A stretch of DNA of 64,000 nt from the NCBI GenBank assembly GCA_041671225.1, contig JBAZBY010000001.1:558940-622939 (forward strand), in the 5' to 3' direction. This document shows positions 34,313 to 56,095 of the stretch, piece after piece. This DNA is from Patescibacteria group bacterium (GTDB lineage: Bacteria; Patescibacteriota; Patescibacteriia; JBAZBY01). The notes under the pieces are model-generated. The model was not told where the DNA came from. It saw only the letters and a list, made by a program, of their open reading frames with translations, and made no database searches. A program made the translations under genes and the position numbers. The stretch's first letter is position 1, and every line of letters begins with the position of its first letter.

Positions 34313-34380
34313 AATAGACAGTGAACTCTACTTTATGGTATTATATGCCTATAAACGCTGACTGTCAAAACGGTCTCGTT

Positions 34381-35343
34381 ATGAAAAAACGTCAAATTTT
34401 TTTCCTCCTTCCCACTTTACTCTTGCTTGTCTTCGTGCTTTTTCAGCACGCTGATTTGACGAGTGCACAGAATCCTCCCTTCACCACTCCGACGCTGCCG
34501 GCGCCGTCAGGTTCCACACAACCCTTTATTGATACGAGCGACACAGCCCAAACCAAGGAAGGATCGCTTATTTTGGATGGAACAGGTCCGGTTACCCTTT
34601 GTTTGGGAGGCGACCCCACAAATCCTGCTTACCCTTCCGATTGTCCTGCGGATTCAGATGTGAATGTGCTCCAACTGAATAATGAGGAGATCGTCCAATT
34701 GGGCGTTCCTTCTGATGGCATTCCACTTGAGGTATTGTCAAACACAAGCCCGCTTTATACCGGTTTTGCGCGACTCCGAGCGCAGGCAGACCAGAGTTAT
34801 GCCATGGGACTCAATGGAAATGGTTCAGGTGGCGGATTTCCATGGGTTGCCGCACTGGTTGCACAGGCAGGCCCGCAGAATGCCGCATCACCATCATTGC
34901 AACGCTATGGTATCCGCGCAGAAGCACGGGTGAATTTGGACACTGCCTATGCCATTTATGGGACTGATATTTGGTTTGACCCTGCCAACGTCCCGAGTAG
35001 TGCGTATGCTGCCAAATTTGACGGGCAGACAGGCTTGAAGGGTGATCTTATGCTTGGTGATGATATTTATCAAAAGCAGCTCTGTTTGAATGGTGAAGAT
35101 AGCGGCCATTGCATCTCCGCATGGGACCCGGAAGGGTCTGGTTTTGCGTTCATTGAGCTGCAAGCCACAGACGTGCCTTCTGTGCCGCAAACAGGCTCAG
35201 TGAGTCTTCGCGGGAATGGGCAGCTGCATTCCGCGATCATTGGCCCAATTGGCGACATTCCATTTTCTTTTACTTGTGGCGACTTAGCGTGTAATGGAAT
35301 AGAAGCAGCCACAGGTCCTAACCAATGCTCTGATTGTTTATAA
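34381..35343 (+). CDS. Secreted protein P1 of the pilus-adjacent array (signal peptide; paralog of P2)
   Basis: 'MKKRQIFFLLPTLLLLVFVLF'; 'TAQTKEGSLILDGTGPVTL'; 'YAAKFDGQTGLKGDLML'; C-terminal 'FSFTCGDLACNG...CSDCL'. Confidence 0.55.
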   Translation: MKKRQIFFLLPTLLLLVFVLFQHADLTSAQNPPFTTPTLPAPSGSTQPFIDTSDTAQTKEGSLILDGTGPVTLCLGGDPTNPAYPSDCPADSDVNVLQLNNEEIVQLGVPSDGIPLEVLSNTSPLYTGFARLRAQADQSYAMGLNGNGSGGGFPWVAALVAQAGPQNAASPSLQRYGIRAEARVNLDTAYAIYGTDIWFDPANVPSSAYAAKFDGQTGLKGDLMLGDDIYQKQLCLNGEDSGHCISAWDPEGSGFAFIELQATDVPSVPQTGSVSLRGNGQLHSAIIGPIGDIPFSFTCGDLACNGIEAATGPNQCSDCL

Positions 35344-35348
35344 CGACT

Positions 35349-37661
35349 ATGTCTATGAAAAGGGGTTACCTTACCATTGCCGCACTCATGCTTTTCATCA
35401 TATTTGGTGTGCAGCAGGTGCATGCGCAAGCTTTTACCGAGCCAACAGACCTTCCGCCAGGCGGGAGCGAAGTGGCGCCGCCGCTCAATACTTCGTCTAC
35501 GACGCAGACAAAGCAGGGAAATTTGAGGTTAGATGGACCAAATCCCGTACGCCTTGAGATAGGGAATAGTTCAGAAACAGGAAATTCCATATGTCTCAAT
35601 GGCGTGTGTAAGACGGATCTTTTTTTTGAAAATTACATTTTATTGCAAGATGGTCCAACCTCTGCTGGCAGCACGCAGGGAGGTTTTACAAAAGTGAGCG
35701 CGAAATCAGGACAACAATATGCGATTTATGCTGAAGGTTCGGAGCCGACAACCGATTGGACTGCCGGGCTTTTTGGCACTGTTGCGTCTGCTGGAAGCGG
35801 TCCATACAAACGTTATGGCGTGGTTGGGCAGTCAACGTCGAATGACGAGCTGGCCGTTGGCGTGTATGGGTATAGCGAGTTTGATGCTGCGTATGCCGGA
35901 TACTTTGATGGACGCGTGCGCGTTGCCGGCGATTTACTGATCTCACCCTATGTTGATGATGCGGGAGCCACACAGCAATCAAAGATCTGTTTGAACGACC
36001 CAGGTAACGAATCACAATGCGTCACGGAATGGCCATTCAGCTTAAGCGGTCAGTTCGTGCGTCTGCAAAAGGTGGGTACGCCTACATTGGATGACGGAAG
36101 TTTGAATATTTCCGGCAGCGGAACATTCTCCAGTATCGTGCTCGGAACCGCGCCAGCAAACACGCCTTTTGATATCACCTGTGGCGATGGCGTGTGTCAG
36201 CCAACGTCATTACCAGCCGAAACGGTCAGTTCGTGTCCCATAGACTGCTTTGCGGTGACCAATATTTCCGTTCAGAAATTCGTGAATTCTGCGACCATCA
36301 GCTGGATCACCACAGAGCCAACAACGGGTTCGGTGGATTTTGGGCCATCAACATTCTATTCGGATGACGTGGTTGACACGAACTTTGCAGGTACCCACGG
36401 ACCGCTCACGATGAATAATCTGCAGCCGGATACAACATATTTTTACCGCATTATTTCCGTTTCTGAATCCGGCGCTGTTGCGTCGAGTAATTGCTCCCCA
36501 AATCCTTCGTGTAGCTTTCGCACATTGCCAACGGATCTATCACCGCCCTCAACAGTGCAGAATCTTCGGATAAACGGCAGTGTTGCATGGGATAGCATTC
36601 CAATAGCATGGGACGCGGCATCGGATAATGTTGCGATTTTGCACTATATTCTTGAGCGCAATGATGGCACGGGCTTTGTGGCGGTCGGCGGAAATATCAT
36701 TGGGACAAGCTATACTGATACCGCAGTCATTCCAAGTAAACAATATACCTATCGCGTGAAAGCCGTGGATACGGCCTTGAATCCAAGCGCGTCATATAGC
36801 GCCACGTTGATTGTGACGACGCCCGCGCAACCAGCAGACACCACCCCACCGAGCGTTCCCGCGGGGGTATCGGTTGTGGGAACAGCATATTATGATAACG
36901 TGGACCTGCAATGGAGTGCCGTACCTGACGCAGATATAAAGGAGTACAACGTCTACCGCAAACTGACGAGCGAGCCGGACACAGAATGGAAGTTCATTGT
37001 AGCGGTCGCGCAGCCAACCCTCACCTACAAAGATGTCGGGCTTTTGACTCCTGATACTGATTATGATTATGCCGTGAGCGCGGTTGATAATGACAATAAT
37101 GAATCAGACCGCTCAGCAAAGGTAACAGCATCTATTGCGCCAGACACCACGTCGCCGGGGGTCCCCGGAACGGTCTCTATCCAGAATCTCGGGACAACAC
37201 GTCTTAGTGTTTCTTGGCAAAAAAGCGCAGGAGACACAGGTGGTTCAGGACTTGCGGGGTACCGCTTGTATCGCTATGACTGTACGTTAGATCCGCATCC
37301 GGATAATGACTGGCTTGAAGAATGCAATCCTGACCCCGCTCCGCCCCCCGGCGTTGGTTGGACGCTCATCGTACAGACTTCGGTATTGTACTGGTACGAT
37401 AGTAGTATTATTTCAGGACGCCAGTATCAGTATCGCGTTACGGCATATGACAATGCCGGCAATGAAAGCACGGCAACCACGCCAACCAAAGAGGTCTATG
37501 TGCCCTATGATGCATGTACAAGCAACAACCAATGCACCAATCCGCCTGTGCCGAATTCTACATATTCCGTGTGTTGTAATGGAGTATGCACCACAGGGTG
37601 TGGCAGCGGCGACGGTGGCGGCCATCTTCCACCGGTAGAGGTAAAAGGGTTTCTTGATTGA
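35349..37661 (+). CDS. Secreted protein P2: P1-like N-terminal domain, about 5 FN3-like repeats, Cys-rich C terminus
   Basis: 'TTQTKQGNLRLDGPNPVRL', 'YAGYFDGRVRVAGDLLI', 'FDITCGDGVCQP...CPIDCF'; FN3 units 'LQPDTTYFYRIISVS', 'SKQYTYRVKAVD', 'GRQYQYRVTAYD'; tail 'CTSNNQCTNPPVPNSTYSVCCNGVCTTGCGSG'. Confidence 0.6.
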   Translation: MSMKRGYLTIAALMLFIIFGVQQVHAQAFTEPTDLPPGGSEVAPPLNTSSTTQTKQGNLRLDGPNPVRLEIGNSSETGNSICLNGVCKTDLFFENYILLQDGPTSAGSTQGGFTKVSAKSGQQYAIYAEGSEPTTDWTAGLFGTVASAGSGPYKRYGVVGQSTSNDELAVGVYGYSEFDAAYAGYFDGRVRVAGDLLISPYVDDAGATQQSKICLNDPGNESQCVTEWPFSLSGQFVRLQKVGTPTLDDGSLNISGSGTFSSIVLGTAPANTPFDITCGDGVCQPTSLPAETVSSCPIDCFAVTNISVQKFVNSATISWITTEPTTGSVDFGPSTFYSDDVVDTNFAGTHGPLTMNNLQPDTTYFYRIISVSESGAVASSNCSPNPSCSFRTLPTDLSPPSTVQNLRINGSVAWDSIPIAWDAASDNVAILHYILERNDGTGFVAVGGNIIGTSYTDTAVIPSKQYTYRVKAVDTALNPSASYSATLIVTTPAQPADTTPPSVPAGVSVVGTAYYDNVDLQWSAVPDADIKEYNVYRKLTSEPDTEWKFIVAVAQPTLTYKDVGLLTPDTDYDYAVSAVDNDNNESDRSAKVTASIAPDTTSPGVPGTVSIQNLGTTRLSVSWQKSAGDTGGSGLAGYRLYRYDCTLDPHPDNDWLEECNPDPAPPPGVGWTLIVQTSVLYWYDSSIISGRQYQYRVTAYDNAGNESTATTPTKEVYVPYDACTSNNQCTNPPVPNSTYSVCCNGVCTTGCGSGDGGGHLPPVEVKGFLD

Positions 37662-37673: not shown

Positions 37674-38432
37674 ATGTTGTTAAACGTTACTTCGCATAAA
37701 CGCTCCCTGCTTTTTCTCCTCATTCTTGGCGGATTGGTTTTTGGCGTTTCCGCAGGCGCGGAGATCGTGAAGCGCGTGACGGTGTATGAAGGAGCGTTGC
37801 GTATTGTGGATTCTCCGGATGGCGGTTCAAGTTATGAAGCGCTTTCTCTTGGTTCTGACGGAAGAGGCATATTCTCCACCAATGAAATCTATATTGCACC
37901 AGGGAGGAGCACTCCAACGTCGTTCTTCCGCGGGCAAGCGGGCACGATCAATGCGGGGTTGTATCTTGACAGTGGTACTGCAGGATTTTCCGCTCTTGAA
38001 GCAGTTGGTGATTCTGCAACGAACCCGGTGCTCGTTGCTGAGCAGCTTGCGAGCGGAAGCTATGCCGGTTATTTTGATGGCGATGTGATTGTTGATGGCG
38101 GGAATCTTGAAGTAACAAAGAGTAAAACTGCAAAGGTCCGCACCTCGCAAGGAGAAGTCTATTTGCATGCGTTGGAATCACCCACAGTGAAGTTCACGGA
38201 TTACGGCGAAGGTATGTTGCACAATGGCACAGCACAGGTGCAGCTTGATCCGCGTTTCATGGAAACGATCGAGGGTGAATATCACGTATTCATCACTGCA
38301 CTCGGTGACCCAACCCCACTCGCGGTGAGTGAGCAGACAACGCAAGGATTCATTGTCAGTGGCGCACGCGACGCTGCCTTTATCTATGAGATCGTTGGTA
38401 CGCGTAAGGGATTTGACGGGAGGAGATTTTAA
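37674..38432 (+). CDS. Secreted protein P3 (signal peptide; Gly-rich middle; conserved C-terminal domain shared with P4 and P5)
   Basis: 'YAGYFDGDVIVDGGNLEV'; C-terminal 'LESPTVKFTDYGEGM...LDPRFMETIEGEYHVFITALG...LAVSEQTTQGFIVSGARDAAFIYEIVGTRKGFDGRRF'. Confidence 0.55.
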   Translation: MLLNVTSHKRSLLFLLILGGLVFGVSAGAEIVKRVTVYEGALRIVDSPDGGSSYEALSLGSDGRGIFSTNEIYIAPGRSTPTSFFRGQAGTINAGLYLDSGTAGFSALEAVGDSATNPVLVAEQLASGSYAGYFDGDVIVDGGNLEVTKSKTAKVRTSQGEVYLHALESPTVKFTDYGEGMLHNGTAQVQLDPRFMETIEGEYHVFITALGDPTPLAVSEQTTQGFIVSGARDAAFIYEIVGTRKGFDGRRF

Positions 38433-40490
38433 ATGAAACGCCGGCTTACCATTATTAGCGTAGGTTTTACTGCCGTATTACTGCTCGGCATTTTTTCATT
38501 TCTTCCGGTTGAGCCAGCGCTTTCTGTGGCAGGGGATTATCTGTGGGTGGATAAAAAGATCAACCCCCCGTTTACCGGTGACGTTGCTCGTGTCCGTTTA
38601 GAGACGGCTACGGACGGCAATGCGCTCACAAAAATTTCATATACTCCATACCGTAAATGGTCAATCTCAAAGCTTGATCGGACTAACGGCAATATTCTGT
38701 GGACTGCCAGCTGGAATGCCGACTTCAATTGGTATGATGACTTGCTTCCGGACAACGCAGGCGGCTTTTATTCTTCCGGTCTTTGTGATGATTTTGATGC
38801 AAGTTGTGTGTATGGATCAAACGGCATGCGCGTGAACCATTATGATACAAATGGTAATGCATTGTGGGACAAAGGCTTCCCGAAGACCGCGGAAGTAGGA
38901 ATTTTTGGCAGCCAAAGAGAGTTACAACTTCAGCTTTTGGACAATAACGATGTGCTTTTTGCAAACGCCGAAGCGACTGATCCAAGTTGGTGGCGATTGC
39001 GAAGACTGGCTGCGAACAATGGTGAAACAATATGGGGACCGATAACGCCTAGTAATTGTGATGACGCAAACGCACAAACGGGTCTGACGGCGCAGGGAAA
39101 TTTTATTTTTGCCTGTGTTGATGACCTTGCGACCGATATTCTTCGCATTCGGGTGTATGATCCATTGAACGGCACGCTTCTGCAAGACGGTAGTATGAGT
39201 CTTCCCAGCCCGATTGGGTCTATTGAAGACGTGTATGGAACTGCCGACGGCGGGTACCTTATTAAACAGTCGGGAATAGTGACAAAAGTGACAAGTTCTT
39301 TTGCCACAAGCTGGACAGCCACCCCGGCCACAGACGTTGTTGTTGATGACGCCGGGCAATATGTGTATATTAGTGCACCGCAAGCTGGCATGAACGTCTG
39401 GAAGCGAGATACGAGTAATGGGAATATCATATGGACAAAGAGCATTGATATTAGCGGGAGTTTTTCAAATGGACTTCGCGCAGATGCAGGCGGTCTTCAT
39501 GTCGCCTATTCGACCGGTATTGGCGGGAACGGGTTTTATGCAAAGATTGATTTTGACGGCAATTTTCTTGTTGGAGCACAGAATATCACCATCCCAGCTT
39601 CCGTGTGGGGGGATGCCAATTCCGTAACGCCGAGTGGCGATGCATTATTGGTAACGCCAGACAACCTTGGCGGCGCAACGTTAGTGTGGGAGAGTGACCG
39701 TTCTGGTACATACTACCAATATGGAACAGGCATCGAAGGCGTTCCACTCCCGACACCACCTAGCGTACCGACGCCACCTCTTCCGCCGCCAACGCCACCC
39801 GCAAAATCATTTCCGGATACCAAGCGCTTGTCCGTGTATGACGGCATCATTTGGATTGTCGGCGGCGCACCATCATATGATGTGATGCAGCTTGGGAACG
39901 CAGGCCGTGATATTCTCGCAACCAGTGGTATCTTTTTTGCTGGGAATGGCGGGGATTCCGGTGGCGCGTATCTTGAGGGGCTTGCAGGTACTGCCGCGCA
40001 ACGGCTTGCCATCAATGCGGGCAACGCAAGCTTCCCTGCGCTGCAACTTTCGAGTTCATCTTCACCCGCGCTGCAGCTGCAGCAACTTGGCACAGGGCTT
40101 GCAGCAAAGTTCATCGGGGATGTGTATGTGACGGGCGACCTTGAGGTGCTTGATGACCCGTTATACCCCGGCACAAAATCTTCTATTGTGGATACCTCGC
40201 AGGGAGAAACAAAGCTCTATGCTATTGAGGCGCCCGACGCGCGGTTTGCGGACTACGGTGAAGGGAAGGTGCAGGATGAAGAAGTGTTCATCCCACTTGA
40301 CCCGACGTTTGCAGAAACGATCGAGGATGCGAATTATCATGTGACGCTCACCGCGATAGATGAAACACATACGCTTGCGGTTGCGGATCGCACAAACAAA
40401 GGGTTCACAGTGAAGGGCGAATCCGGCACGCGTTTTTATTATGAAGTAGTCGGCATACGTAAAGGATACAACGATGCACGCTTTAAGTAA
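38433..40490 (+). CDS. Secreted protein P4: PQQ-like beta-propeller repeats, Pro-rich linker, conserved C-terminal domain
   Basis: Repeated 'GN[IA]LW'/'GETIWG'/'GNIIWTK' blades; 'PLPTPPSVPTPPLPPPTPP'; C-terminal 'IEAPDARFADYGEGK...LDPTFAETIEDANYHVTLTAID...LAVADRTNKGFTVKGESGTRFYYEVVGIRKGYNDARF'. Confidence 0.6.
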   Translation: MKRRLTIISVGFTAVLLLGIFSFLPVEPALSVAGDYLWVDKKINPPFTGDVARVRLETATDGNALTKISYTPYRKWSISKLDRTNGNILWTASWNADFNWYDDLLPDNAGGFYSSGLCDDFDASCVYGSNGMRVNHYDTNGNALWDKGFPKTAEVGIFGSQRELQLQLLDNNDVLFANAEATDPSWWRLRRLAANNGETIWGPITPSNCDDANAQTGLTAQGNFIFACVDDLATDILRIRVYDPLNGTLLQDGSMSLPSPIGSIEDVYGTADGGYLIKQSGIVTKVTSSFATSWTATPATDVVVDDAGQYVYISAPQAGMNVWKRDTSNGNIIWTKSIDISGSFSNGLRADAGGLHVAYSTGIGGNGFYAKIDFDGNFLVGAQNITIPASVWGDANSVTPSGDALLVTPDNLGGATLVWESDRSGTYYQYGTGIEGVPLPTPPSVPTPPLPPPTPPAKSFPDTKRLSVYDGIIWIVGGAPSYDVMQLGNAGRDILATSGIFFAGNGGDSGGAYLEGLAGTAAQRLAINAGNASFPALQLSSSSSPALQLQQLGTGLAAKFIGDVYVTGDLEVLDDPLYPGTKSSIVDTSQGETKLYAIEAPDARFADYGEGKVQDEEVFIPLDPTFAETIEDANYHVTLTAIDETHTLAVADRTNKGFTVKGESGTRFYYEVVGIRKGYNDARFK

Positions 40491-41325
40491 TTATCAGCAT
40501 CATAAACTCCGCAGCGCATCAAGCGGAGAAAAACCATTCCGTACCTCGGTATTGTTCGTGCTGGCATTTGTCACGCTTTTTGCGGGATCGCTGGCGGTCT
40601 ATGTGGGAAGAGTGAGCTCTGCGCCCGGCTCAGGAACACCTCCAATTCTCGGTACTACCCTTGGAAATATCTATAACGGCGGCATCCAGATAACGGGTAA
40701 TGGCGCCAGCCCTGACACGCTTGCGCTTGGTGCAGGCGGGAGTGTGATCGCCGGAACAGGCAATCTCTATTTTCTTCCGAATGAATCGATCGTTGATGCA
40801 TCATATGGTTCATACTTCCGCGGCGTCAGTGGCCAGCCGGCACAGGGATTGGTGATTGATACGCGTTTGTGGGACGCCACGGGCGTGACATTGCAGAACA
40901 ACAACGCAGCACAGATCACCCTTGCGGCGCTTGCAACAGGCAGCTCCACGACAGCCGCGTCATTTTTGGGTGGTCTGCGCATTGAGGGTAATCTCGTTAA
41001 AGAGAACCTCAATGCTGTTGTTGATACGAGCGCAGGCCCGGCAACGCTTTCAACGCTTGAGGCGCCGGATGCGCGTTTTGTTGATTATGGCACAGGTACA
41101 ACACAGGACGGCAGAACTGAGATTGCGATTGACGCACTGTATGCCGAGACGGTTGATCTTGAGACGTATTACGTTTTCACAAGCCCCGCGAGCAGTGATG
41201 CTGTTCTTGCCGTCACAGAGCAAACAACTGACGGCTTCACCGTTCTCGCGTCGCATGACACGGATTTTACGTATAAAATTGTTGCAGTACGCAAAGGGTA
41301 TTCGCAGAAGCGCTTCAGCCAATAA
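40474..41325 (+). CDS. Secreted/membrane-anchored protein P5 (conserved C-terminal domain shared with P3 and P4)
   Basis: Signal anchor 'VLFVLAFVTLFAGSLAVYV'; C-terminal 'LEAPDARFVDYGTGT...YYVFTSPASSDAVLAVTEQTTDGFTVLASHDTDFTYKIVAVRKGYSQKRF'. Confidence 0.55.
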   Translation: MHALSNYQHHKLRSASSGEKPFRTSVLFVLAFVTLFAGSLAVYVGRVSSAPGSGTPPILGTTLGNIYNGGIQITGNGASPDTLALGAGGSVIAGTGNLYFLPNESIVDASYGSYFRGVSGQPAQGLVIDTRLWDATGVTLQNNNAAQITLAALATGSSTTAASFLGGLRIEGNLVKENLNAVVDTSAGPATLSTLEAPDARFVDYGTGTTQDGRTEIAIDALYAETVDLETYYVFTSPASSDAVLAVTEQTTDGFTVLASHDTDFTYKIVAVRKGYSQKRFSQ

Positions 41326-41328: not shown

Positions 41329-44300
41329 ATGCCGCAAATACTGCAGCACAAGAGCTTTCCGTATGTGATGACGCTCCTGGTTCTTCTATCAGGAGTCTTG
41401 CTTGGCGTCCTTTATGGTTCTCCCGTTTGGGCGGCGTGGATACAAACGCCGGTTCTTGAGGGCTATGAGAATGCTGTTATTCATGACATTGTCATGCTGG
41501 AGAAGAGCCCGGATAACACGCCAGAGAACACACCATATGTAGGTTATGCGGTAGGGCAGCTTGATGGCACACAGACCGCGGGAGCCATCATTCTTTACTA
41601 TAATGGCGTTTCTTGGTCGCATCTTTATTCTGACGAGCATCTTGGTATTTTGCGAGGTGTTGATGCGCGCTATGACGGAACAAAACCAGAAGTCATTGCC
41701 GTTGGAGATTATACCGTGAGCAGCGGCTACCCCACACCTGATTTCAATACCATTATACACGGCGTAAACAACATCTTCAGTATCCAGACGTATCAGGAAA
41801 TTGGTGGGGTTGCCGGCGCACATGATCGTTGTAATCCCATTATCGAGTTAAATTGTAAAAGTTGGGTAGCAGACGGGACAGATCTCGTTGATGCTGCCTT
41901 TGGTGATCAGGCGATCATTCACCGCTATGAAGGCGGCGCGTGTGCAGGCACTCTTCAGGATGATGGGTTGTTTATTATTGGCGACACACAAGATTATGGC
42001 GGTATAACCGGCATACGGGGTACGTTTCTTGTTGGGCAGCGTTGTGTTGACAGTTCATCGCACGATGTCATGTGGGTCATGCGTGATCAATTGTCCAATC
42101 CATACTATCCAACACTTTTTTCTTCACTTGCAACGCCAATTGTGGGGAATTTCACGGCAATGACCTACGCTGGACATAGCTCGTACTTTATTGCCGCGGA
42201 TAGAGCCACAGAATCAAAGGCAAGCCTATTTAAATTCAGCATGGACGCGGGCACGACAGGATTCAAAGAAGTGAGCACGTCTGGCGTTCAATTCAATGAT
42301 GCGGGCGGAGTGCGCACCATAGAAAGCTTGTCAGCAGTGCTTGAGCCAGGCCCGGCCGCGGACGCAAAAGGACCATATTGGCATGTCTATGCAACAACAG
42401 CAACGGATGGCAATGCGGATACAGGAGTGGTCCATCTTGGTATTTATGGTGATGCCGCGAGTGGTCTTTCGGACGGCCTTGCGCATACGCGCTTTTCAAC
42501 AAGCAAACCCATAAGTGATGTGGGTGCGGTTATTCAATATCGTGGCGGCAATATTCTTGCCAATAGTAACTTCACGGGAACTCATGAGAATAATGCGCAC
42601 CTGCCAGAAGGGTGGCATTCTTCAGATTCTATCGCCACTTTGTACGATACCACTATTCATGCCACTGATGTCGTTGATAATCCCTCAGCTCCAGAGGGGC
42701 CTTCTGGCAAGGTACTGCAGCTCGCGCAGGAACTCATAGAAAATGCCAATGAGTCAGCCGCGGTGCAGTTTTGGACAGACAATACCTTTACGACGCGCGT
42801 GACCACAACACAGAATGAACTCGCACATCCTTTTATTGGATCTCTCGACGCAGACGCGTTACTCGGAACCGTGCCTGGGAGCAATGCGTTTCGTATCACC
42901 GGTTTTTTTAAAGGCCATCCTTCTGACACATATGACTTTCAGCTTTCACTTACTCATCCAGGGGATACCCATGCACGGCTGTTTATTGGAAATAAAATAG
43001 CAGACTCAAATGGCGATTTTGATGATGCAAATGCCATAGCTGATAAGTGGACAGCAACAGCGCCTGGCTTTGGCCAGTTTACGTTTGATGGAGCAGGGGG
43101 AGAGATTCTTGATTCCATGACCCTTGGTGATGGCGCAGGCGTTCGTGAATCGGAGGGGTATTATCCTTTTGTGTTCGAGTTTGCCCGGGATAATGAACTT
43201 ATTGTTGGGCGCAGCGTCACTCTGCAATGGAAAAAAGATGGATCTGCAACGTATGATCCATTTAATCCAGCAATGCGGGTCGGTAATAGTAGCTTGATCG
43301 ATGGCGGGTTGGGTCAGCAAGCGGCTTCTGAACAGCCTTTACCGCACATGCGGGGGCCAAAGGGTCCGGCATATCTCGTGAAAGGCAAGGTGCGTGTTGC
43401 AAAGGCACCGGATGCTTTTTTTAACGCGAACGATCGTGACCCACGGAAGCCAGGAAGAGCCTGGGGCGGTATTTATACGCGTTGTGAGGATCCTGCATGG
43501 GGGGATTGCGGTTTTAACTGGTCAATAGAAACCATCGATCCAAAGGTTGAGTCTGACACGCTCACAACAGAAGACCCAGGAACAGGCGGTTGGCGTGAAT
43601 TTCAATATATCCTGGCAAAGACCGGCGAGGCACAAAATTACATGACGGTTGTTTGTTACGCCGAATACGGAGTGAAGACATGGTGTGCTGATTTTTCCAT
43701 AGAGCCGGTTCAAGAAGCCACACAAGCAACGGCGCCGCGTTATATGCTTTTTGCGTCTAGTCCCGATGGGAGTATTTTTTCTGGGAATGCAGAATTGCCG
43801 GGCACGATGACCCTCAAGGAAGAGGTGAGTGGTACCGTCGCGCTGCGCGCTATTGATGTTGCTTCTCCGGTGAAGGGAGCCGCAGGCGGTGATCATGGCG
43901 GGCTTTTTGATATTATTCCGGGGTTGGTGCAGGGATGGGGATGGGTTGGTGCAACAACCACCGGCACGTCAAAGGATGCATTGGGTTGGATCAGTTTTTC
44001 TTGCGCGGATTCCAATCAGTGCAATGAACATCAGCTGAGCTATGGTGTGAACCTCGGGAGCGCATTGCCTGGTAATCTGCATCCCTTGGATGGTGCGGCG
44101 TGGTTTGGCACCACAGACGTGAATCAGGTGCGCCAGCTTGATGGCGCACCGATAGCAAAGGATTCTGTTTGTACTGGCGACGATCGGTATATTTGCTCTC
44201 ATTATGTTCCTGATCCGGGGGACCCTGGCGCTCCTGCAGATGCGAATGCATTTTGTCAGTCTCTTGGCGCGGGAACGTGCCCTGCAGCGTCACAGGTATG

Positions 44301-46032
44301 TAGCGTGGCACCGAGCTTTGCTGATTGCGATATCGAATGTTCGCCAATCACGGGACATCCGTTTGGCTGCGCAAGCGTTGGTTGGCTTTCATTTGAGCGG
44401 AACACGGATCCATTACTTTCCACTGGCCGGCCGCCATGTGATAATGGCAGTACCGGACCATGTCTTGGCGATCTTTACAGCACCGCTGGCACAAGCCAAA
44501 CATATACTGCAGCAGTAGACTTTGATACCGGCATTATGAGTGGATGGGGTCGTCTTCTTTCCCTTGCAAGTACCATTAATGAAACGAATGTGACGCCAGG
44601 TGGTTGGGTGAAGTTTCTTGGTTCTGAAGTATCAGGTTTTACAGGGGACCTCTATGAGTGCGTGAATTGTCAGGAAAGCGCACTTGGATATCATTGCCGA
44701 CTGTGCTTTTTGCCGGATCCAACCGTCGGAAATCCATTTCCTGGTCTTTGCAGCCGCACAACGCCTGCAAACCCCGGTGAATGTACGGGAAGGTGCTCAA
44801 ACGACCTTAGTGGCACATGCACAACAGATGCAACGTGCGGAGCAGGGGAAGCGTGTCTACCAAACGGGTGGTGTGACGGAGTTGTCGGCGCTTCTGCATG
44901 TTTTTCAAATAGTGATTGCCCGGGAACCGAATGTACGAATATTGGATTTACCTGCGACACAACCAGCGCGACCTGCTATCGCTATGGCACGGGATTGGAT
45001 ACTTCTTCCGGAAAGTTTCATGGTTTCGCATGGAGCAATGACGTAGGATGGGTAGATATGTCACGCGTGCGGTATGGTAACCAGCCGTGGTTTCAAACAC
45101 TGCAGGGGAATATTTTTTCTGCTGACAATGTTGGCGACGCATCCAATGTGACGCCCGTAAAATGCAATGCAACATATCGCATCACTGCCGTGGGGACTCT
45201 GGAAAATGTTTGCTCCGCATCAGCAGCAAACCCATTTGAGGTGCCGTTTGAAGTTGATGCAGATCTAGGAGATAATCTCATCACCTCTGATAGCGATAAA
45301 AGCCTGGAGACGGTCTTTGGCGCGACAGATCTTGCTGGTTTACTGAATGACAATGACGGTGATTTTATACCAGACGCGTTTGGCATTGGTAAGGGAAGGT
45401 ATGCCAGTGAACTTGTTAATCTTAATAATGGGCCAACCCGCACAATCTTTGATGCGCAGCTTGGGGGGGGAGGTCTTTTGCTCGACAATAAGGTGTATTA
45501 TTACTGCGGAGAACCGTGTGGAAACAGCACATTGGAACTGAGCGATGGGCTCATTTTAAATGGTACCGCAGATGATGAATCAGGGGATGGCACGCTTGTG
45601 GTTCTTGGAGATCTGATCTTCATTGGGGATATTCTTTATAAAAATGTGCAGGTAGATTCTCTGACGCAACTCGCATCCCTTGGCATCATTGTTCTGGGGG
45701 ATGTGCAAATAAAGAATAGCGTCAATGAAATCGATGCGACATTGTATGCACTTGGGAATCCAGCCTTAGGCGTCGTAGGACAAGACCCACTTGCCGGACG
45801 ACGCGCAGGTACCATTCGTATTGATGGCGGAACAAGCGCCCAGTATGTGCATCGCGGTCTTATGATTGCCAGAGAATTCAGCTTCAAGCGCGTCTATGGC
45901 GGTTTGCTTTCTGATCCAGATTCAGCAGAAAAGGTCATTTATGATGGACGTGTTGTGGCAAATCCGCCGCCAGGATTCACCACACTCCAAAAGGCACTTC
46001 CTCTACTGCGTCAGTCCGTCCCTACGAACTAG
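41329..46032 (+). CDS. Giant (1567 aa) secreted protein P6 with a Cys-rich module and a beta-helix-like C-terminal region
   Basis: N-terminal TM/signal; about 30 Cys clustered in 'CVNCQESALGYHCRLC...CSRTT...CTGRCSND..CTTDATCGAGEAC...CFSNSDCPGTEC'; C-terminal 'LVVLGDLIFIGDILYKN..LGIIVLGDVQIKN'. Confidence 0.6.
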   Translation: MPQILQHKSFPYVMTLLVLLSGVLLGVLYGSPVWAAWIQTPVLEGYENAVIHDIVMLEKSPDNTPENTPYVGYAVGQLDGTQTAGAIILYYNGVSWSHLYSDEHLGILRGVDARYDGTKPEVIAVGDYTVSSGYPTPDFNTIIHGVNNIFSIQTYQEIGGVAGAHDRCNPIIELNCKSWVADGTDLVDAAFGDQAIIHRYEGGACAGTLQDDGLFIIGDTQDYGGITGIRGTFLVGQRCVDSSSHDVMWVMRDQLSNPYYPTLFSSLATPIVGNFTAMTYAGHSSYFIAADRATESKASLFKFSMDAGTTGFKEVSTSGVQFNDAGGVRTIESLSAVLEPGPAADAKGPYWHVYATTATDGNADTGVVHLGIYGDAASGLSDGLAHTRFSTSKPISDVGAVIQYRGGNILANSNFTGTHENNAHLPEGWHSSDSIATLYDTTIHATDVVDNPSAPEGPSGKVLQLAQELIENANESAAVQFWTDNTFTTRVTTTQNELAHPFIGSLDADALLGTVPGSNAFRITGFFKGHPSDTYDFQLSLTHPGDTHARLFIGNKIADSNGDFDDANAIADKWTATAPGFGQFTFDGAGGEILDSMTLGDGAGVRESEGYYPFVFEFARDNELIVGRSVTLQWKKDGSATYDPFNPAMRVGNSSLIDGGLGQQAASEQPLPHMRGPKGPAYLVKGKVRVAKAPDAFFNANDRDPRKPGRAWGGIYTRCEDPAWGDCGFNWSIETIDPKVESDTLTTEDPGTGGWREFQYILAKTGEAQNYMTVVCYAEYGVKTWCADFSIEPVQEATQATAPRYMLFASSPDGSIFSGNAELPGTMTLKEEVSGTVALRAIDVASPVKGAAGGDHGGLFDIIPGLVQGWGWVGATTTGTSKDALGWISFSCADSNQCNEHQLSYGVNLGSALPGNLHPLDGAAWFGTTDVNQVRQLDGAPIAKDSVCTGDDRYICSHYVPDPGDPGAPADANAFCQSLGAGTCPAASQVCSVAPSFADCDIECSPITGHPFGCASVGWLSFERNTDPLLSTGRPPCDNGSTGPCLGDLYSTAGTSQTYTAAVDFDTGIMSGWGRLLSLASTINETNVTPGGWVKFLGSEVSGFTGDLYECVNCQESALGYHCRLCFLPDPTVGNPFPGLCSRTTPANPGECTGRCSNDLSGTCTTDATCGAGEACLPNGWCDGVVGASACFSNSDCPGTECTNIGFTCDTTSATCYRYGTGLDTSSGKFHGFAWSNDVGWVDMSRVRYGNQPWFQTLQGNIFSADNVGDASNVTPVKCNATYRITAVGTLENVCSASAANPFEVPFEVDADLGDNLITSDSDKSLETVFGATDLAGLLNDNDGDFIPDAFGIGKGRYASELVNLNNGPTRTIFDAQLGGGGLLLDNKVYYYCGEPCGNSTLELSDGLILNGTADDESGDGTLVVLGDLIFIGDILYKNVQVDSLTQLASLGIIVLGDVQIKNSVNEIDATLYALGNPALGVVGQDPLAGRRAGTIRIDGGTSAQYVHRGLMIAREFSFKRVYGGLLSDPDSAEKVIYDGRVVANPPPGFTTLQKALPLLRQSVPTN

Positions 46033-46106: not shown

Positions 46107-47321
46107 ATGAGTCTGTTTGGGGGTAAAAAGAGCTATGTCGGCGTTGATATCGGTACTTCGTCCATAAAGGTAACGGAATTCACTGATGATCGCGGACGTC
46201 CACGGCTCGTAACATATGGATTTGCCGACCAGCCAATTGAGGTTTTAAAGTCTGATACGCCGGAATCACGTGAATATGTCACGCAGTCACTGAAGGCGAT
46301 ACTCAAGAAGGCGCACATTTCCTCAACCCAAGCAGTTGCTGCGCTGCCGAATTTTTCCGTGTTTTCATCCATCATTTCCTTACCGGAAATGAGCAAGAAA
46401 GATCTTTTTTCTGCTGTACGCTGGGAAGCAAAGAAATTCGTTCCAATGCCGCTCGAGGAGATGGTTCTGGACTGGCGGGTATTGAAGACGGAAGAGCAGC
46501 ATGCTGCGGCTGCCAAGGCAGCGCTGGAGCCGGCAATGGCAGGTATGCCAGATACAATACCAAGACCCGGCATTCCATCCGCAGCTGGAGCACCAGAATC
46601 CCTCTTTAAGGCGTCCAGTCAGAGCGAGGGTGAAATCAAAGAAGAGCACAAAGAGTTGGGTAAAGAGGGTCAGACAGGCAAAAATCTTCGCGTACTTATT
46701 ACCGCCGCACCCAAAGGGCTCGTTGAAAGGTATATTCAGATTTTCAAAGGCGCCGACCTGCAAATGAAAAGCCTTGAGACGGAAGCATTTTCACTCACAC
46801 GTTCATTGATTGGCAGCGACCCTTCACCCATTTTATTGGTTGATATTGGTGCAGTGACAACAACGATCAGTATTATCGTTGATGGCATTCCCATGATGAA
46901 CAAGAGTATTGATGTCGGTGGCGAAACAATCACACAAGCCATCACTACAAGTCTTCATGTTGAGCATCGTCGAGCGGAGCAGTTTAAGCGGGATTTTGGC
47001 CTTGCCACCTCCAGCGGGCCAGCAACACAGGTTCCCAAAACGATCGAATTCACTTTTTCTTCCATTGTGAATGAAATGCATTACGTGTTGAATCTTTTTC
47101 AAAGCCAGGAACACATTGTGCCGGAAAAAATCATTCTTGCCGGCGGTTCTGCTTTTCTTCCCAATCTTATTCATCACCTTGAGACAGAAATGAACATGCG
47201 CGCATTTATTGGGGATCCTTGGGCCCGCGTGGTGTATCCAAAAGATCTTCAGCCTTTGCTCGCAGAAATCGGTCCACGCTTTGCCGTGGCAGCAGGATTA
47301 GGAATGCGAGAGATACTCTAA
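46107..47321 (+). CDS. pilM: Type IV pilus assembly protein PilM (actin-like ATPase fold)
   Basis: 'KSYVGVDIGTSSIKVTEF' N terminus, 'ILAGGSAFLPNL', about 400 aa; first gene after P6. Confidence 0.85.
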   Translation: MSLFGGKKSYVGVDIGTSSIKVTEFTDDRGRPRLVTYGFADQPIEVLKSDTPESREYVTQSLKAILKKAHISSTQAVAALPNFSVFSSIISLPEMSKKDLFSAVRWEAKKFVPMPLEEMVLDWRVLKTEEQHAAAAKAALEPAMAGMPDTIPRPGIPSAAGAPESLFKASSQSEGEIKEEHKELGKEGQTGKNLRVLITAAPKGLVERYIQIFKGADLQMKSLETEAFSLTRSLIGSDPSPILLVDIGAVTTTISIIVDGIPMMNKSIDVGGETITQAITTSLHVEHRRAEQFKRDFGLATSSGPATQVPKTIEFTFSSIVNEMHYVLNLFQSQEHIVPEKIILAGGSAFLPNLIHHLETEMNMRAFIGDPWARVVYPKDLQPLLAEIGPRFAVAAGLGMREIL

Positions 47322-47328
47322 AAAAACA

Positions 47329-48402
47329 ATGCCAGATATCAATCTCACGCCTGAAGGGAGCAGTAGCGAGAAGCGCAAGAACGCAAAGCGCAAGAATTTT
47401 GAATACACTGATCCTGAGAAGGAAAAACAGCGCAAGGATGAACGCAAAGCGCCGGGAGGCCTTCGCGTCTGGATGAAGTCATTGCTACGACGCACTCCTC
47501 CTGGTAAACGCAGTGACGATGCAATGCCGGAGTCATTGACACCGCCTGAATTCAACACAACCAAACACGACGAAAACGTTGAGGACATTTTTGGCACTGT
47601 GGACGTGCCTGCAAAAGAGCGCGCAAAAGCCAAGGAGCAGAAGCAGGAAGTGCCGAATACGCCAAAGGCGCCAAAGCTCAAAAAACTTCCAGAAAAGAAG
47701 GAAGAAAAGAAAAAGGAGGAGAGAAGGATCGATGGCATGAACCTTTTGCCGGAAGAGTTTTCAACGAAGATTGATTTTCGCGGTCGTGGTATTTTGCTCA
47801 GCCTTGTTCTGGGTGCAACAGTCGTCTTTATTGCTCTGGCGTATGGGGGTCTTATTATTTATGAGAATGTGATTGCAAATCGCACCCGCGAAGCAACAGA
47901 TACTCGCATTGCCATTCAGCGCGATATTGAAGCGCTTGAATCCGAGCAGCTTGCAAGTATTGCTTTTCGGGAGAAGCTCGATCTCGCTGAAGCACTGCTG
48001 AATCAGCACGTGTATTGGACGAAGTTTTTTGCGTTATTAGAAAAGTACACCATTGATGATGTGTATTTCAGCGGATCCCTCCTCCTTTCAGAACCAGGAA
48101 CCTTCACGCTGTCCGGAATAGGTCGTGACTATACATCTGTTGTTCGCCAGCTTCTCGCCTTCCGACAGGCGATTCAGAGTCAGGAGTTTATTAGCTCTGT
48201 CAAAATTAACGGTGCTCAGCAAACTCAAGACAGCAGTGGAGCTATCGCGACAACATTCACCGCGGAGCTTACATTGTTACCCAATGTCAATACATATACT
48301 GCCGAGGAATATCTGACAAAGCCATCCGTCATCTCCATACCGCAATCATCCAATACAAATAGCAATACTGTTGATTCTGATAATCGACCTGCAACGCTAT
48401 GA
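47329..48402 (+). CDS. pilN: PilN-like pilus assembly protein with about 135-aa Lys/Glu-rich N-terminal extension
   Basis: Internal canonical 'MNLLPEEF' (47737) followed by TM 'ILLSLVLGATVVFIALAYG' and coiled region; INLLP-like 'DINLTPE' also at the extreme N terminus. Confidence 0.7.
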   Translation: MPDINLTPEGSSSEKRKNAKRKNFEYTDPEKEKQRKDERKAPGGLRVWMKSLLRRTPPGKRSDDAMPESLTPPEFNTTKHDENVEDIFGTVDVPAKERAKAKEQKQEVPNTPKAPKLKKLPEKKEEKKKEERRIDGMNLLPEEFSTKIDFRGRGILLSLVLGATVVFIALAYGGLIIYENVIANRTREATDTRIAIQRDIEALESEQLASIAFREKLDLAEALLNQHVYWTKFFALLEKYTIDDVYFSGSLLLSEPGTFTLSGIGRDYTSVVRQLLAFRQAIQSQEFISSVKINGAQQTQDSSGAIATTFTAELTLLPNVNTYTAEEYLTKPSVISIPQSSNTNSNTVDSDNRPATL

Positions 48403-49100
48403 AGCTTTCCCTTCGTCTTAATGCAGTGACTTCATTTTTGAACAAGCAATTTCGCTGGGCTATGCTTGGGATTGTTGCGGTCCTGCTCATTTTTGGCTTT
48501 ATGGTGCTTATCATTCCAAAGTGGCAGGAGCTGAGTAAACTCGGTCTTATTACATTAGAGCGCGAACGAGAACAAACAGTGCAAGCGGAAGAGTATCTTG
48601 GAAACTTACGTCGCTCTCTTGATGAATTTCGGCTGATCAGTGATACAAAGATTGCGCAGCTGGAGCAAGTGCTTCCTACTGAATTTGATGTTGCGCCGCT
48701 GTTTCTTGAAATGGAATCGCTTTTTAATGCCGCTGGATACGCGTTGAACAGTATCGATATTCTTGATCAAGGCGCGCAGAAGGCTTCGACTGCCGCTGTA
48801 CAGCAGTCGAACACAGGACAAAGCGCTGTTGTACGAGAACTCATCACAAGGGCACAGAAGAATGCCGAGGTGGTATCTCGCAATGAGAAGCTTCGCGTTA
48901 TTCAAATATCACTTTCATTGACTGGCGCGCAGGATTACAAGGGTATCAAGAAATTACTCACAACAATTGAGCAGCATCAACGTCTTATGGATATTCGTTC
49001 GGTGGGGATATCCGTTGGCGGGAAGGATATCACTGAGGAAACCGCAACTGCGGAGGGACAAATTTCCTTCACAGTCAATATTTATTACTTCGCAGAATAG
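48399..49100 (+). CDS. pilO: PilO-like pilus assembly protein
   Basis: Start overlaps pilN stop; TM 'WAMLGIVAVLLIFGFMVLII', coiled coil and C-terminal domain. Confidence 0.65.
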   Translation: MKLSLRLNAVTSFLNKQFRWAMLGIVAVLLIFGFMVLIIPKWQELSKLGLITLEREREQTVQAEEYLGNLRRSLDEFRLISDTKIAQLEQVLPTEFDVAPLFLEMESLFNAAGYALNSIDILDQGAQKASTAAVQQSNTGQSAVVRELITRAQKNAEVVSRNEKLRVIQISLSLTGAQDYKGIKKLLTTIEQHQRLMDIRSVGISVGGKDITEETATAEGQISFTVNIYYFAE

Positions 49101-49106
49101 CGACTT

Positions 49107-49397
49107 ATGGCACTTGCGCAACGTAGCAATACACGACGAACGATCATCCTGGCCGCCGCCCTGGGCGTGGTGCTGATCGCCGGGGGAGTGTATCTGTACA
49201 TCCAAAATAAACCGGATGAAACCATCATTGATCCATCAGCGATACTTGTGAACGCGAGCCAGAACCTTCCCATTATCTCAACCTTCTCGGATACGATCTT
49301 TGATGATCCGCGCTTTCAGGATCTGGTTTTTCGCGCGCCGCAGGAGATCACCATTGGCAATCTTGGTAAGGATAATCCTTTTCAGCCTACGTTTTAA
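49107..49397 (+). CDS. Small membrane-anchored pilus assembly protein (PilP-like position)
   Basis: 96 aa, TM 'IILAAALGVVLIAGGVYLYI', located between pilO and pilB. Confidence 0.4.
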   Translation: MALAQRSNTRRTIILAAALGVVLIAGGVYLYIQNKPDETIIDPSAILVNASQNLPIISTFSDTIFDDPRFQDLVFRAPQEITIGNLGKDNPFQPTF

Positions 49398-49400
49398 TCC

Positions 49401-51161
49401 ATGCCAGCGCCTCAAGCTATCACAAGCGTTTCAACGAGCATCGGTGATATTTTAATCAGTCAGGGATTAATCACCAAAGAGCAGCTCGCAGAAGCAGAGC
49501 AAAAAGCACAGCAGGACGGCAGTTCTGTTGAGCAACATTTAGCTGAGCTCCCTGGTATGCGCGAGGATGAAGTTGTAAGGGCAAAGGGGCAGCTGTACAA
49601 CGTACCCTATGCTGATCTTTTTGGGCGTATTGTTCGCGCAGAAATACTCAATTTGATTCCGCAGAACATCGCCAATACGTACCACATGGTGACTTTTGCC
49701 CGTGAAGCGAATGAAGTGTCACTCGCCATGCTCAATCCTTCTGATTTTAAGGCTCTTGAGGCGATCGAATTTATCGCACGGAAGAATCGGTTGACCGTGA
49801 AGTACCACATCACGACAAAGGCGTCGTTGGGGTATATTCTTCGTCAGTATGAGTCGCTTTCTGCTGAGGTAGAAGAAGCATTGAAGGGCGCAGAGGAGGA
49901 AGCAACAGAACGTCAGGAGGCGCTCGTTGCGTCCGATGACAAGAGTTTTGAAGAAGTGGTGCGTCAGGCGCCGGTATCAAAGATGGTTTCTGTTATCATG
50001 CGGCACGCGGTGGAAGGCGGCGCATCAGACGTTCATATTGAGCCGCTCGAAGAAGAAACGCGGGTACGTTTTCGCGTTGATGGCATGTTGCATACTTCCA
50101 TTGTTCTCCCGCCGAATGTGCACAACTCACTCGTTGCTCGCATCAAGGTGCTTTCCAGGCTCAAGATCGATGAAACGCGCGTTCCGCAGGATGGACGTTT
50201 TCGCATGAATATTGATGGTAAGGATATCGACTATCGCGTGTCCACCTTACCGCTCATGAACAATGAAAAAGTCGTGATGCGTATTTTGGACACGTCAAAC
50301 CGCATGACAATGCTTTCTGATCTCGGTTTTGAAGGGAAGAATCTTGAGAAGATGGAGGCCAACTCACTGAAGTCACACGGCATGTTCCTGATCACCGGCC
50401 CGACTGGTTCCGGTAAGTCCACAACGCTGTATGCGCTCATGTCGCGGTTGAATAAAGACGAAGTAAACATCATTACGCTGGAAGATCCGGTGGAATATTA
50501 CATGCATGGCATTAACCAGTCACAGGTGAATCCGGAAGTCGGTCTTACCTTTGCTGCGGGTTTGCGCTCCATTTTGCGTCAGGACCCGGACATCATCATG
50601 GTTGGGGAAATCCGCGATAATGAAACCGCTGAACTGGCAGTTCATGCTGCGCTCACCGGTCACATCATGCTTTCTACTCTGCACACCAATGATGCTTTTG
50701 GAGCCGTGCCACGTCTCATTGATATGGATATTGAACCATTCCTTATCACCTCCTCACTCAATCTTGTGATGGCCCAGCGACTCGTGCGGCGTGTCTGCCA
50801 GCATTGCACGGAGGAGCGCACTATTGCGGAAGGGCTTGAGAAGGCAGTGCGAGATGAGCTGAAGAATGTTGACCCGAAGGAAATTCCCAGATCACTTGCC
50901 GGTGAACTCAAGTTCATGTATGGACGTGGTTGTCCGCGCTGCGAGAACACGGGCTACAAAGGACGCGTCGCAATTGCTGAAGTACTCGAAATGAGTGACG
51001 AGTTGAAGCGTATTATCGTTGACGCAAAGCAGGATCTCATTGGTTTGATTCAAGCAGAATTCAAGCGCCAAAAAATGCTTACCATTAAGCAAGATGGCAT
51101 GGTGAAGGTACTGCACGGCTCAACAACCATTGAAGAGGTGCTGAACGCAACACGATCTTAA
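49401..51161 (+). CDS. pilB: Type IV pilus assembly ATPase PilB (GspE family)
   Basis: N-terminal GSPII 'ILISQGLITKEQLAEAEQ'; Walker A 'GPTGSGKSTTLYA'; Walker B-type 'IIMVGEIRDNETAE'; His box 'GHIMLSTLHTNDA'; tetra-Cys 'CQHC...CPRC'. Confidence 0.9.
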   Translation: MPAPQAITSVSTSIGDILISQGLITKEQLAEAEQKAQQDGSSVEQHLAELPGMREDEVVRAKGQLYNVPYADLFGRIVRAEILNLIPQNIANTYHMVTFAREANEVSLAMLNPSDFKALEAIEFIARKNRLTVKYHITTKASLGYILRQYESLSAEVEEALKGAEEEATERQEALVASDDKSFEEVVRQAPVSKMVSVIMRHAVEGGASDVHIEPLEEETRVRFRVDGMLHTSIVLPPNVHNSLVARIKVLSRLKIDETRVPQDGRFRMNIDGKDIDYRVSTLPLMNNEKVVMRILDTSNRMTMLSDLGFEGKNLEKMEANSLKSHGMFLITGPTGSGKSTTLYALMSRLNKDEVNIITLEDPVEYYMHGINQSQVNPEVGLTFAAGLRSILRQDPDIIMVGEIRDNETAELAVHAALTGHIMLSTLHTNDAFGAVPRLIDMDIEPFLITSSLNLVMAQRLVRRVCQHCTEERTIAEGLEKAVRDELKNVDPKEIPRSLAGELKFMYGRGCPRCENTGYKGRVAIAEVLEMSDELKRIIVDAKQDLIGLIQAEFKRQKMLTIKQDGMVKVLHGSTTIEEVLNATRS

Positions 51162-56085: not shown

Positions 56086-56095
56086 AACACATTTT

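Follow-up and report, generated by a model that had tools for sequence, protein, structure and literature searches.

Does a type IV pilus locus without a conventional pilY1 gene encode some other propeller-bearing adhesin in its place? This question is raised by a 64,000-nucleotide stretch of a Patescibacteria group bacterium genome (GenBank assembly GCA_041671225.1, contig JBAZBY010000001.1, positions 558,940 to 622,939 of the forward strand; hereafter the window), in which a gene referred to as P4 lies upstream of pilM. From the DNA sequence, P4 had been proposed to be a PilY1-like pilus adhesin candidate combining a PQQ-like beta-propeller, a proline-rich linker and a shared C-terminal domain (the original prediction). 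The analysis described here leads to a different favoured reading, to which an even chance is given: P4 would be the head-bearing subunit of a tailspike-like surface fibre with an exchangeable receptor-binding head, working alongside type IV pili.

P4 is encoded by an open reading frame (ORF) of 685 residues at 38433..40490 (+), exactly where the original prediction had placed it, and the gene can be accepted as real: its ATG comes straight after the stop codon of the preceding gene, and a strong Shine-Dalgarno sequence of its own (GGGAGGAG, 38419..38426 (+), read from the sequence) stands 7 nt before it. The identical database entry is a hypothetical protein, WCV86_04215, from a Patescibacteria group bacterium metagenome-assembled genome (MAG). 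Four parts were delineated, namely a Sec-type N-terminus, a beta-propeller, a Pro-rich linker and a C-terminal module of ~220 residues (the C-module; see Table 1 for all coordinates). The N-terminus suggests that P4 is exported via Sec and either secreted or, if the putative signal is not cleaved, anchored; a motif search of the same region found no type IV pilin signal (G-1/E5, class-III motif).

The beta-propeller and the tailspike-type module

The assignment of the N-terminal ~400 residues to a beta-propeller, originally made from recurring blade-like units, was borne out by repeat, profile and structural analyses. Blade-like motifs (TNGNILW at residue 84, DTNGNALW at 138, NNGETIW at 195, TSNGNIIW at 327 and DFDGNFLV at 373) are spaced 45-57 residues and are kept in P0009, an ortholog of 40% identity. 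Blades B1, B2, B3 and B6 resemble one another beyond chance (Smith-Waterman z = 3.5-7.2, 200 shuffles) and the remaining putative blades have diverged. Matches to propeller profiles are modest and come from three independent libraries. Pfam PQQ_2 matches P4 with an E value of 1.1e-4 (22.4 bits, below the cut-off of 27.6) and independently matches P0009 (E 3.8e-4, 20.6 bits, also sub-threshold); PHROG phrog_8401, 'beta-propeller repeat protein', matches residues 72-377 (E 1e-6); and in the PDB several blades of the CylK propeller are matched (E 0.0065) when a two-sequence profile is used. No RCC1 match was found in P4 with Pfam, and NCBIfam gave no match for P4 or its two paralogs.

Structure prediction, which might have returned another fold and so contradicted the original prediction, likewise gave a propeller. 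The AlphaFold2 model of P4 was computed from a 39-sequence alignment, an 8-sequence alignment having yielded an unusable model with a predicted local distance difference test score (pLDDT) of 42.6. Between residues 55 and 380 it contains 28 strands, which form seven groups of four at a pLDDT of about 70-90, and a weak eighth strand group of low confidence follows at residues 385-432. When the model was compared with the PDB using Foldseek, the top matches were all propellers (BamB, 3prw, E 3e-10; the designed eight-bladed Cake8; tetrathionate hydrolase; CylK; G-beta), and the likeness to BamB is at the level of the generic fold, with 12-15% identity. Taken together, the sequence profiles and the model firmly predict a beta-propeller of seven or eight blades at residues ~35-435. 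Its closest neighbours in fold and sequence profile are the BamB / PQQ_2 and SBBP (CylK-type) propellers; however, BamB is a lipoprotein of outer-membrane assembly in diderm bacteria, CylK is an enzyme, and both are without the linker and the tailspike-type module described below.

The presence of CylK and tetrathionate hydrolase among the top structural neighbours raises the alternative that P4 is itself an enzyme, with a catalytic propeller (for example one degrading or modifying polysaccharide or cell wall) delivered to the host surface by the fibre, and depolymerase activity is indeed common in phage tailspikes. However, no catalytic family was matched above threshold in Pfam or NCBIfam, no conserved catalytic motif was identified, and the enzymes of tailspikes usually reside in the beta-helix rather than in a propeller, so that an enzymatic P4 is considered very unlikely.

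Behind the propeller, the polyproline linker was found as quoted in the original prediction (PLPTPPSVPTPPLPPPTPP, residues 438-456). The linker is Pro-rich also in P0009 and in the ortholog of locus L003, and its pLDDT in the model is below 50. The last 215-225 residues of P4 are shared with the ORFs on either side, at 37674..38432 (C1; 41% identity, E 1e-41) and at 40474..41325 (C3; 35% identity, E 2e-33), in agreement with the shared C-terminal domain of the original prediction. In the AlphaFold2 model the first part of this module, the stalk, consists of short beta-strands every 10-12 residues and is beta-helix-like (pLDDT 50-63), and the core that follows (residues 600-680) is all-beta with a pLDDT above 90.

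The C-module is without any model in Pfam or NCBIfam, and its relatives were identified in phage libraries. PHROG phrog_6616, 'tail protein', matches 24 of the 25 module copies (best 5.5e-25) and phrog_33972 matches 19 of them; all three paralogs of the window are matched by phrog_6616 (P4 5e-14, C1 1e-10, C3 3.5e-11). A profile built from the 25 module sequences matches the tailspike of cyanophage Pam1 (7eea_A, from an entry of 3 chains) at residues 596-662 of 664, its extreme C-terminus (E 3.7e-6), the match being one of sequence profile. In a search of BFVD a siphovirus tail protein ranked first (E 8e-13), and phage 'PQQ repeat' proteins were also among the matches. The receptor-binding domain of Pam1 comprises a right-handed beta-helix together with a distal beta-sandwich, and each of the two has been proposed to recognise host polysaccharide (PMC9382816). 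On these profile matches, the shared C-module is assigned as a phage tail-protein or tailspike-type module homologous to the distal beta-sandwich of Pam1. The homology with Pam1 gp17 (7EEA), phrog_6616 and phrog_33972 covers the last 70-120 residues of P4 and its paralogs, and P4 and Pam1 gp17 are also alike in having a beta-rich stalk before the beta-sandwich and in the modular logic of receptor-binding proteins with exchangeable parts. In contrast to Pam1 gp17, P4 is chromosomal, is predicted to be Sec-exported and belongs to a conserved locus that is not of phage nature; the stalk of P4 measures ~115 residues instead of being a long beta-helix, and its variable part is the N-terminal propeller.

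How widely P4 and its module occur was assessed by searching 1.84 billion representatives exhaustively with HMMER. At E < 1e-3, 2,543 module-matching proteins were recovered, with P0009 (694 residues) as the sole full-length P4 match. P0006, of 260 residues and with 58% identity over P4 residues 435-680, lies on a 1.4-kb contig and is probably a fragment of a second P4 ortholog. All other matches cover the module alone, with a core corresponding to P4 residues 579-684, usually near the C-terminus of proteins of 100-2000 residues with varied N-termini. Word-seeded homolog searches with full-length P4 or its N-terminal part recovered only P4 itself, and a search of genome and metagenome contigs with an alignment of P4 and P0009 found no related loci. 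The module carriers in GTDB genomes (L010-L020) are proteins of 440-880 residues, the N-terminal parts of which have no Pfam match, and when ten module carriers of other phyla were scanned with Pfam, no partner domain was informative. The shared C-terminal domain is of phage tailspike type and widespread outside pilus contexts, and it does not tie P4 specifically to the pilus.

Exchange of the propeller and variation of the heads

P4 belongs to a co-oriented block of six genes, designated A (340 residues), B (775 residues), C1 (252 residues), P4, C3 (283 residues) and D (1567 residues), with spacings of -17 to +12 nt between genes (C3 begins inside P4 and shares its last 17 nt) and 74 nt between D and pilM. 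The gene order ClpB, M48, LemA, x, A, B, C-module genes, D, pilM ... pilB is found in the window and in four metagenome-derived loci, in which ClpB is 61-79% and PilM 49-82% identical to the proteins of the window. Genes A and B are conserved in all syntenic loci, and D measures 1521-1714 residues in every one of them.

An indication of how P4 evolves was obtained by comparison with a locus of SRR22388171, represented by two metagenome contigs that overlap by 24 nt (L004 and L003). Within a tract that coincides with the boundaries of the propeller domain, identity at fourfold-degenerate sites is 83% (151/181) against 37% (559/1526) in the pooled rest of the locus (Fisher p = 3e-34), and because of this difference the simplest reading is that the propeller was exchanged recently, horizontally and with domain precision between deeply diverged genomes (see Table 1 for the identities of the individual parts). 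Such an exchange fits a determinant of specificity. In comparison with L001, on the other hand, no part of P4 is less conserved than the propeller, with 34% identity while PilB retains 78%. Two further candidate observations were rejected. The propeller segment is not of foreign composition, as its GC content (0.48) and GC content at third codon positions (0.45) are inside the range of the neighbouring genes, and diversification of the kind produced by diversity-generating retroelements was discarded because P4 is not involved in any template/variable repeat pair.

Each complete locus contains exactly three module genes in a row, and their modules form three orthogroups (C1, C2, which is the P4 type, and C3) with 50-64% identity within and 29-45% between groups. 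The C1 orthogroup is kept in L001 and L004 and the C3 orthogroup in L001, L003 and L006. The domains placed in front of these modules differ between loci and can stand on any of the three orthogroups (Table 1). In the middle protein of L007 a distant P4-like propeller (26% identity over 145 residues, E 0.001) precedes a WGW domain, and the middle proteins of L007 and L008 are 86% identical across their overlap. In L007 and L008 the first module is joined to an FN3 protein in a single fusion, and this Rosetta-stone link hints that B and C1 act together; in the window, gene B with its four FN3 domains is separate, at 35334..37661 (+). As judged from these comparisons, the N-terminal heads carried on the common module are clearly modular and variable.

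This pattern of conservation bears on the alternative that P4 acts in the envelope as a scaffold or assembly factor rather than as an adhesin, its propeller serving as a docking platform like that of BamB and aiding assembly of the pilus machine. BamB and PQQ_2 are the best structural and Pfam neighbours of P4, the gene precedes pilM and the pilN/O-position genes at a short distance, and an N-terminal anchor would hold the propeller near the membrane. Scaffolds are normally conserved, however, whereas the P4-type head has been swapped for unrelated domains in sister loci and exchanged horizontally, the propeller is the part of P4 that has diverged most from L001 while PilB has been kept, and the likeness to BamB is generic; a scaffolding role is therefore judged improbable.

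The same synteny decides on a further alternative, in which P4 and its paralogs are the remnant of a prophage or tailocin, with tail-fibre genes that lie near the pil genes by chance. The tail-protein matches in PHROG, the match to the Pam1 tailspike and the tail proteins at the top of the BFVD search would all be expected of such a remnant. However, in five diverged genomes the cassette has the same housekeeping genes (ClpB, M48 and LemA) on one side and pilM on the other, a scan of the neighbours gave no match to capsid, portal, terminase, sheath or baseplate proteins, and every cassette protein carries a Sec signal or anchor. A prophage origin of the cassette was rejected on its conserved chromosomal synteny in five loci, and as an account of P4 it is hardly credible.

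A candidate surface fibre and its relation to type IV pili

In the fibre reading, the N-terminal signal or anchor would direct P4 into Sec export, and the last 220 residues of P4, for which the homology to phage tails was established above, would form a short beta-helix-like stalk followed by a beta-sandwich. By analogy with tailspikes, the module would oligomerise, probably as a trimer, and the oligomer may include C1 and C3 as 'headless' paralogs. The propeller, of predicted fold and exchanged between genomes, would be held on the flexible polyproline linker as an exchangeable ligand-binding head that may bind a structure of the partner or host cell. Finally, the fibre would most likely cooperate with type IV pili in host attachment, because the cassette is conserved directly upstream of pilM-pilB-pilT-pilC and is probably co-transcribed with these genes; terminator-like sites are not enriched.

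A more specific form of this proposal was also considered, in which C1, P4 and C3 assemble into a heterotrimeric fibre derived from a tailspike, with interchangeable heads (propellers, FN3 arrays) that could be fused to any of the three chains and act as swappable determinants of host range in this episymbiotic lineage, the fibre being deployed on the type IV pilus or together with it. This version is thought unlikely. If true, it would mean that ultrasmall bacteria have domesticated a phage receptor-binding system for host recognition, which evolves via phage-like domain swapping.

Several points weigh against the fibre as proposed. In twelve loci of other phyla (including Gemmatimonadota, Acidobacteriota, Planctomycetota, Chloroflexota and Omnitrophota) the module is single-copy and no PilM, PilB, PilT or PilC homolog occurs within 10 kb, so that its association with pili is specific to this lineage. 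The synteny in which that association is seen is among family-level relatives and may in part reflect shared ancestry and not functional coupling to pili. The exchange of the propeller is read from two metagenome contigs whose break falls within the propeller, and a chimeric assembly is therefore possible. The AlphaFold2 model of P4 is moderate overall (mean pLDDT 66, predicted template modelling score 0.50), and its eighth blade and stalk are of low confidence. That the module oligomerises and that C1, P4 and C3 assemble with one another is put forward purely by analogy, and the whole account is built on the sequence of an uncultivated MAG. In addition, a parallel trimer anchored by its N-termini would place the propeller proximal to the cell and not distal, a poor fit to the role of a head unless P4 loses its signal peptide by cleavage and is anchored at the end formed by the module.

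The main competing explanation is the original one in its strict form, namely that P4 is a PilY1-like pilus-tip adhesin, incorporated or bound via minor pilins, with the propeller mediating adhesion. PilY1 is known from diderm bacteria. Like P4, the PilY1/PilC proteins (PF05567, 3HX6; Pseudomonas, Neisseria, Myxococcus) are large, Sec-exported, non-pilin proteins that bear a propeller and are encoded near type IV pilus genes. P4 shares its strand block with pilM, pilB, pilT and pilC, and the absence of a conventional pilY1 was upheld: Pfam revealed no PilY1/PilC domain in the ORFs scanned across the window, and there is no large modular-pilin adhesin in the pil locus, where the pilin cluster contains no protein above 343 residues and no adhesin domain. 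The phylum also offers an example of a propeller-bearing candidate pilus adhesin. In Nanosynbacter lyticus TM7x (Saccharibacteria), the pilin-like protein PilX2, which ends in an RCC1 propeller of seven blades, is a candidate T4P-2 adhesin (PMC11623550 / ISME J 2025 wraf119), and its deletion halves host binding (PMC11623550).

However, no homology to PilY1 was detected. Pfam scans at E <= 0.1 gave no match to PF05567 in P4 or P0009, the sole match being PQQ_2, no PilY1 chain was present among the PDB sequence matches of P4, and PilY1 was absent from its top 50 Foldseek neighbours, which are generic propellers of 7-8 blades. The calcium-binding loop for which a check had been suggested is not there, as neither P4 nor P0009 nor the ortholog of L003 contains the motif Dx[DN]xDxxxD; in contrast, PilY1 has such a loop. 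The motif search gave no RGD motif either, and P4 has no vWA match in Pfam. The order of domains is reversed: in PilY1 a modified seven-bladed propeller stands at the C-terminus after a large N-terminal region (often vWA), whereas the propeller of P4 is N-terminal and made up of 7-8 BamB/SBBP-like blades. P4 also carries the tailspike-type C-module, which PilY1 does not have and which has no pilus link elsewhere, and it is without a pilin-like N-terminus. Finally, the PilY1 gene belongs to a minor-pilin operon, whereas the P4 gene is outside that operon and upstream of pilM; the pilin cluster begins (54051) 13.6 kb after P4, and the minor-pilin genes (57334..60109) are 16.8 kb away. A pilus-tip adhesin incorporated in the manner of PilY1 is thus regarded as quite unlikely. 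What stands of the original prediction is a propeller protein, predicted to be secreted or anchored, with an exchanged head and encoded in a conserved cassette adjoining the pil genes; what does not stand is the homology to PilY1, along with its domain order, its calcium loop and its place in the minor-pilin operon. P4 may be viewed as a functional analogue of pilus-linked propeller adhesins and not as a PilY1 homolog, and a role in adhesion is plausible.

PilX2 is the nearest precedent for P4 in this phylum; the concept is common to both and the architecture differs. Both proteins come from the same phylum-level group and bear a propeller; both are encoded with type IV pilus genes, their N-termini are non-canonical (non-PilD), and binding to host surfaces has been proposed for each. 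As judged from its description, PilX2 consists of a pilin-like fold followed by the C-terminal propeller and is encoded in a pilin locus, whereas P4 has an N-terminal propeller of another family, a tailspike module, a cassette of three paralogs and no pilin motif. Pilus-linked propeller adhesins and phage receptor-binding modules in bacterial proteins are already known kinds. The combination of propeller, polyproline linker and tailspike module with the triad of paralogs conserved upstream of pilM and the domain-precise exchange of heads was not found in the literature searched.

Genomic setting and implications

Table 1. Positions of the parts of P4, its cassette and the pil genes in the window, with identities to the SRR22388171 locus (L004 + L003) and the heads of syntenic loci
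Feature	Position	Strand	Description
P4 residues 1-34	38433..38534	+	Sec-type signal peptide or signal anchor (predicted): MKRR, 20-residue hydrophobic stretch, ALSVA/G
P4 residues 35-435	38535..39737	+	Propeller head, seven confident four-stranded blades and a probable eighth; repeats, profiles, AlphaFold2, Foldseek
P4 residues 436-463	39738..39821	+	Pro-rich linker; PLPTPPSVPTPPLPPPTPP at residues 438-456
P4 residues 464-578	39822..40166	+	Stalk part of C-module; common to both paralogs, covered by the hidden Markov model of the module
P4 residues 579-685 and stop codon	40167..40490	+	Beta-sandwich core of C-module; phage tail-protein homology
Exchanged tract	38530..39717	+	Coincides with propeller domain boundaries; nucleotide identity about 90-98% inside, 40-68% outside
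Propeller segment vs L004 + L003			Amino acid 91%, nucleotide 92%, fourfold-site 83% (151/181)
Signal peptide, linker, stalk, beta-sandwich, C1, C3, B, D vs L004 + L003			Amino acid 51-64%, fourfold-site 29-49%
PilM vs L004 + L003			Amino acid 85%, nucleotide 75%, fourfold-site 36%
LemA vs L004 + L003			Amino acid 83%, nucleotide 78%, fourfold-site 50%
Head in window, L001, L003/L004			P4-type propeller on C2
Head in P0010			Different N-terminal domain on C2
Head in P0014	L006:723-2633		'GGxWGWK' x8 repeat domain on C3
Head in L007, L008	L007:5551-8967; L008:6627-9998		FN3 protein fused to first, C1-type module (P0013, 1138 residues)
Middle protein in L007, L008 (P0016)	L007:8951-12340; L008:10001-11839		Carries WGW domain
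A and B	34321..37661	+	A, 340 residues, no assigned function; B, 775 residues, secreted, four FN3 domains (Pfam fn3 E 1.5e-19)
C1 paralog	37674..38432	+	252 residues, signal peptide and C-module only; 41% identity to P4 module
C3 paralog	40474..41325	+	283 residues, N-terminal transmembrane anchor and C-module; 35% identity to P4 module
D	41329..46032	+	Giant secreted protein, 1567 residues; last cassette gene, 74 nt before pilM
pilM, two genes at pilN/O positions (357 and 233 residues), pilB, pilT, pilC	46107..53876	+	Core pil genes
Pilin cluster	54051..60109	+	Two major-pilin paralogs, small pilin, PilD, three minor pilins, one further ORF; N_methyl motifs

The last gene of the cassette, D, has no match in Pfam, NCBIfam, PHROG or the PDB and could itself be a large pilus-associated component. 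The pil genes downstream of it were identified with Pfam (PilM_2, 5e-38; T2SSE, 4e-128 and 5e-27; T2SSF, 9e-63), as was the prepilin peptidase PilD (Peptidase_A24) at 56528..57271. The final ORF of the pilin cluster (59078..60109, 343 residues) has no Pfam match and its identity as a pilin is unconfirmed. The two major-pilin paralogs are in tandem, at 54051..54665 and 54818..55402 (+); their first 216 nt are 92% identical and their first 57 residues identical, and their C-terminal halves have diverged, a pattern that suggests pilin variation.

At the upstream end of the cassette, divergent promoter-like sites were found at 34315..34368, near 34.3 kb, between the LemA-side genes and the cassette. 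The minus-strand site is a perfect 12/12 match to the sigma-70 consensus and the plus-strand site is of the extended -10 type. The latter overlaps the called GTG start at 34321, which may therefore be mis-called. Beside ClpB, a ComFC-like, competence-related protein (double zinc ribbon and phosphoribosyltransferase) is encoded at 28686..29327 (-) and is kept in the syntenic loci.

Elsewhere in the window, further large surface proteins are encoded. A protein of 1392 residues at 15469..19647 (-) has at least five tandem repeats of 123 nt (41 residues) at 18204-18941 and a Pfam match to the triple beta-spiral of reovirus sigma-C (E 3.5e-7), and resembles a trimeric-fibre-like surface protein. 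Another, of 1330 residues at 26..4018 (+), contains four Pur_ac_phosph_N/FN3-type domains. The stretch 20000..28000 is of low GC content (0.33-0.45 as compared to ~0.50 elsewhere), contains genes for MBOAT and AlgX-like acetyltransferases and may be an island for the modification of surface polysaccharide.

The recognition of hosts by Patescibacteria, for which the name Candidate Phyla Radiation (CPR) is also in use, and their attachment to them, is largely unknown beyond a few cultivated Saccharibacteria, in which type IV pili and PilX2 have been implicated. The locus described here provides a concrete, conserved candidate for host attachment in another Patescibacteria lineage. Its C-terminal module defines a widespread family of ~2,500 proteins, as yet uncurated in Pfam and NCBIfam, that links bacterial surface proteins with the tail proteins of phages. 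If the fibre reading is confirmed, episymbiotic bacteria would be seen to use the receptor-binding logic of phages, and the head domains would become sequence markers from which host range could be predicted in metagenomes.

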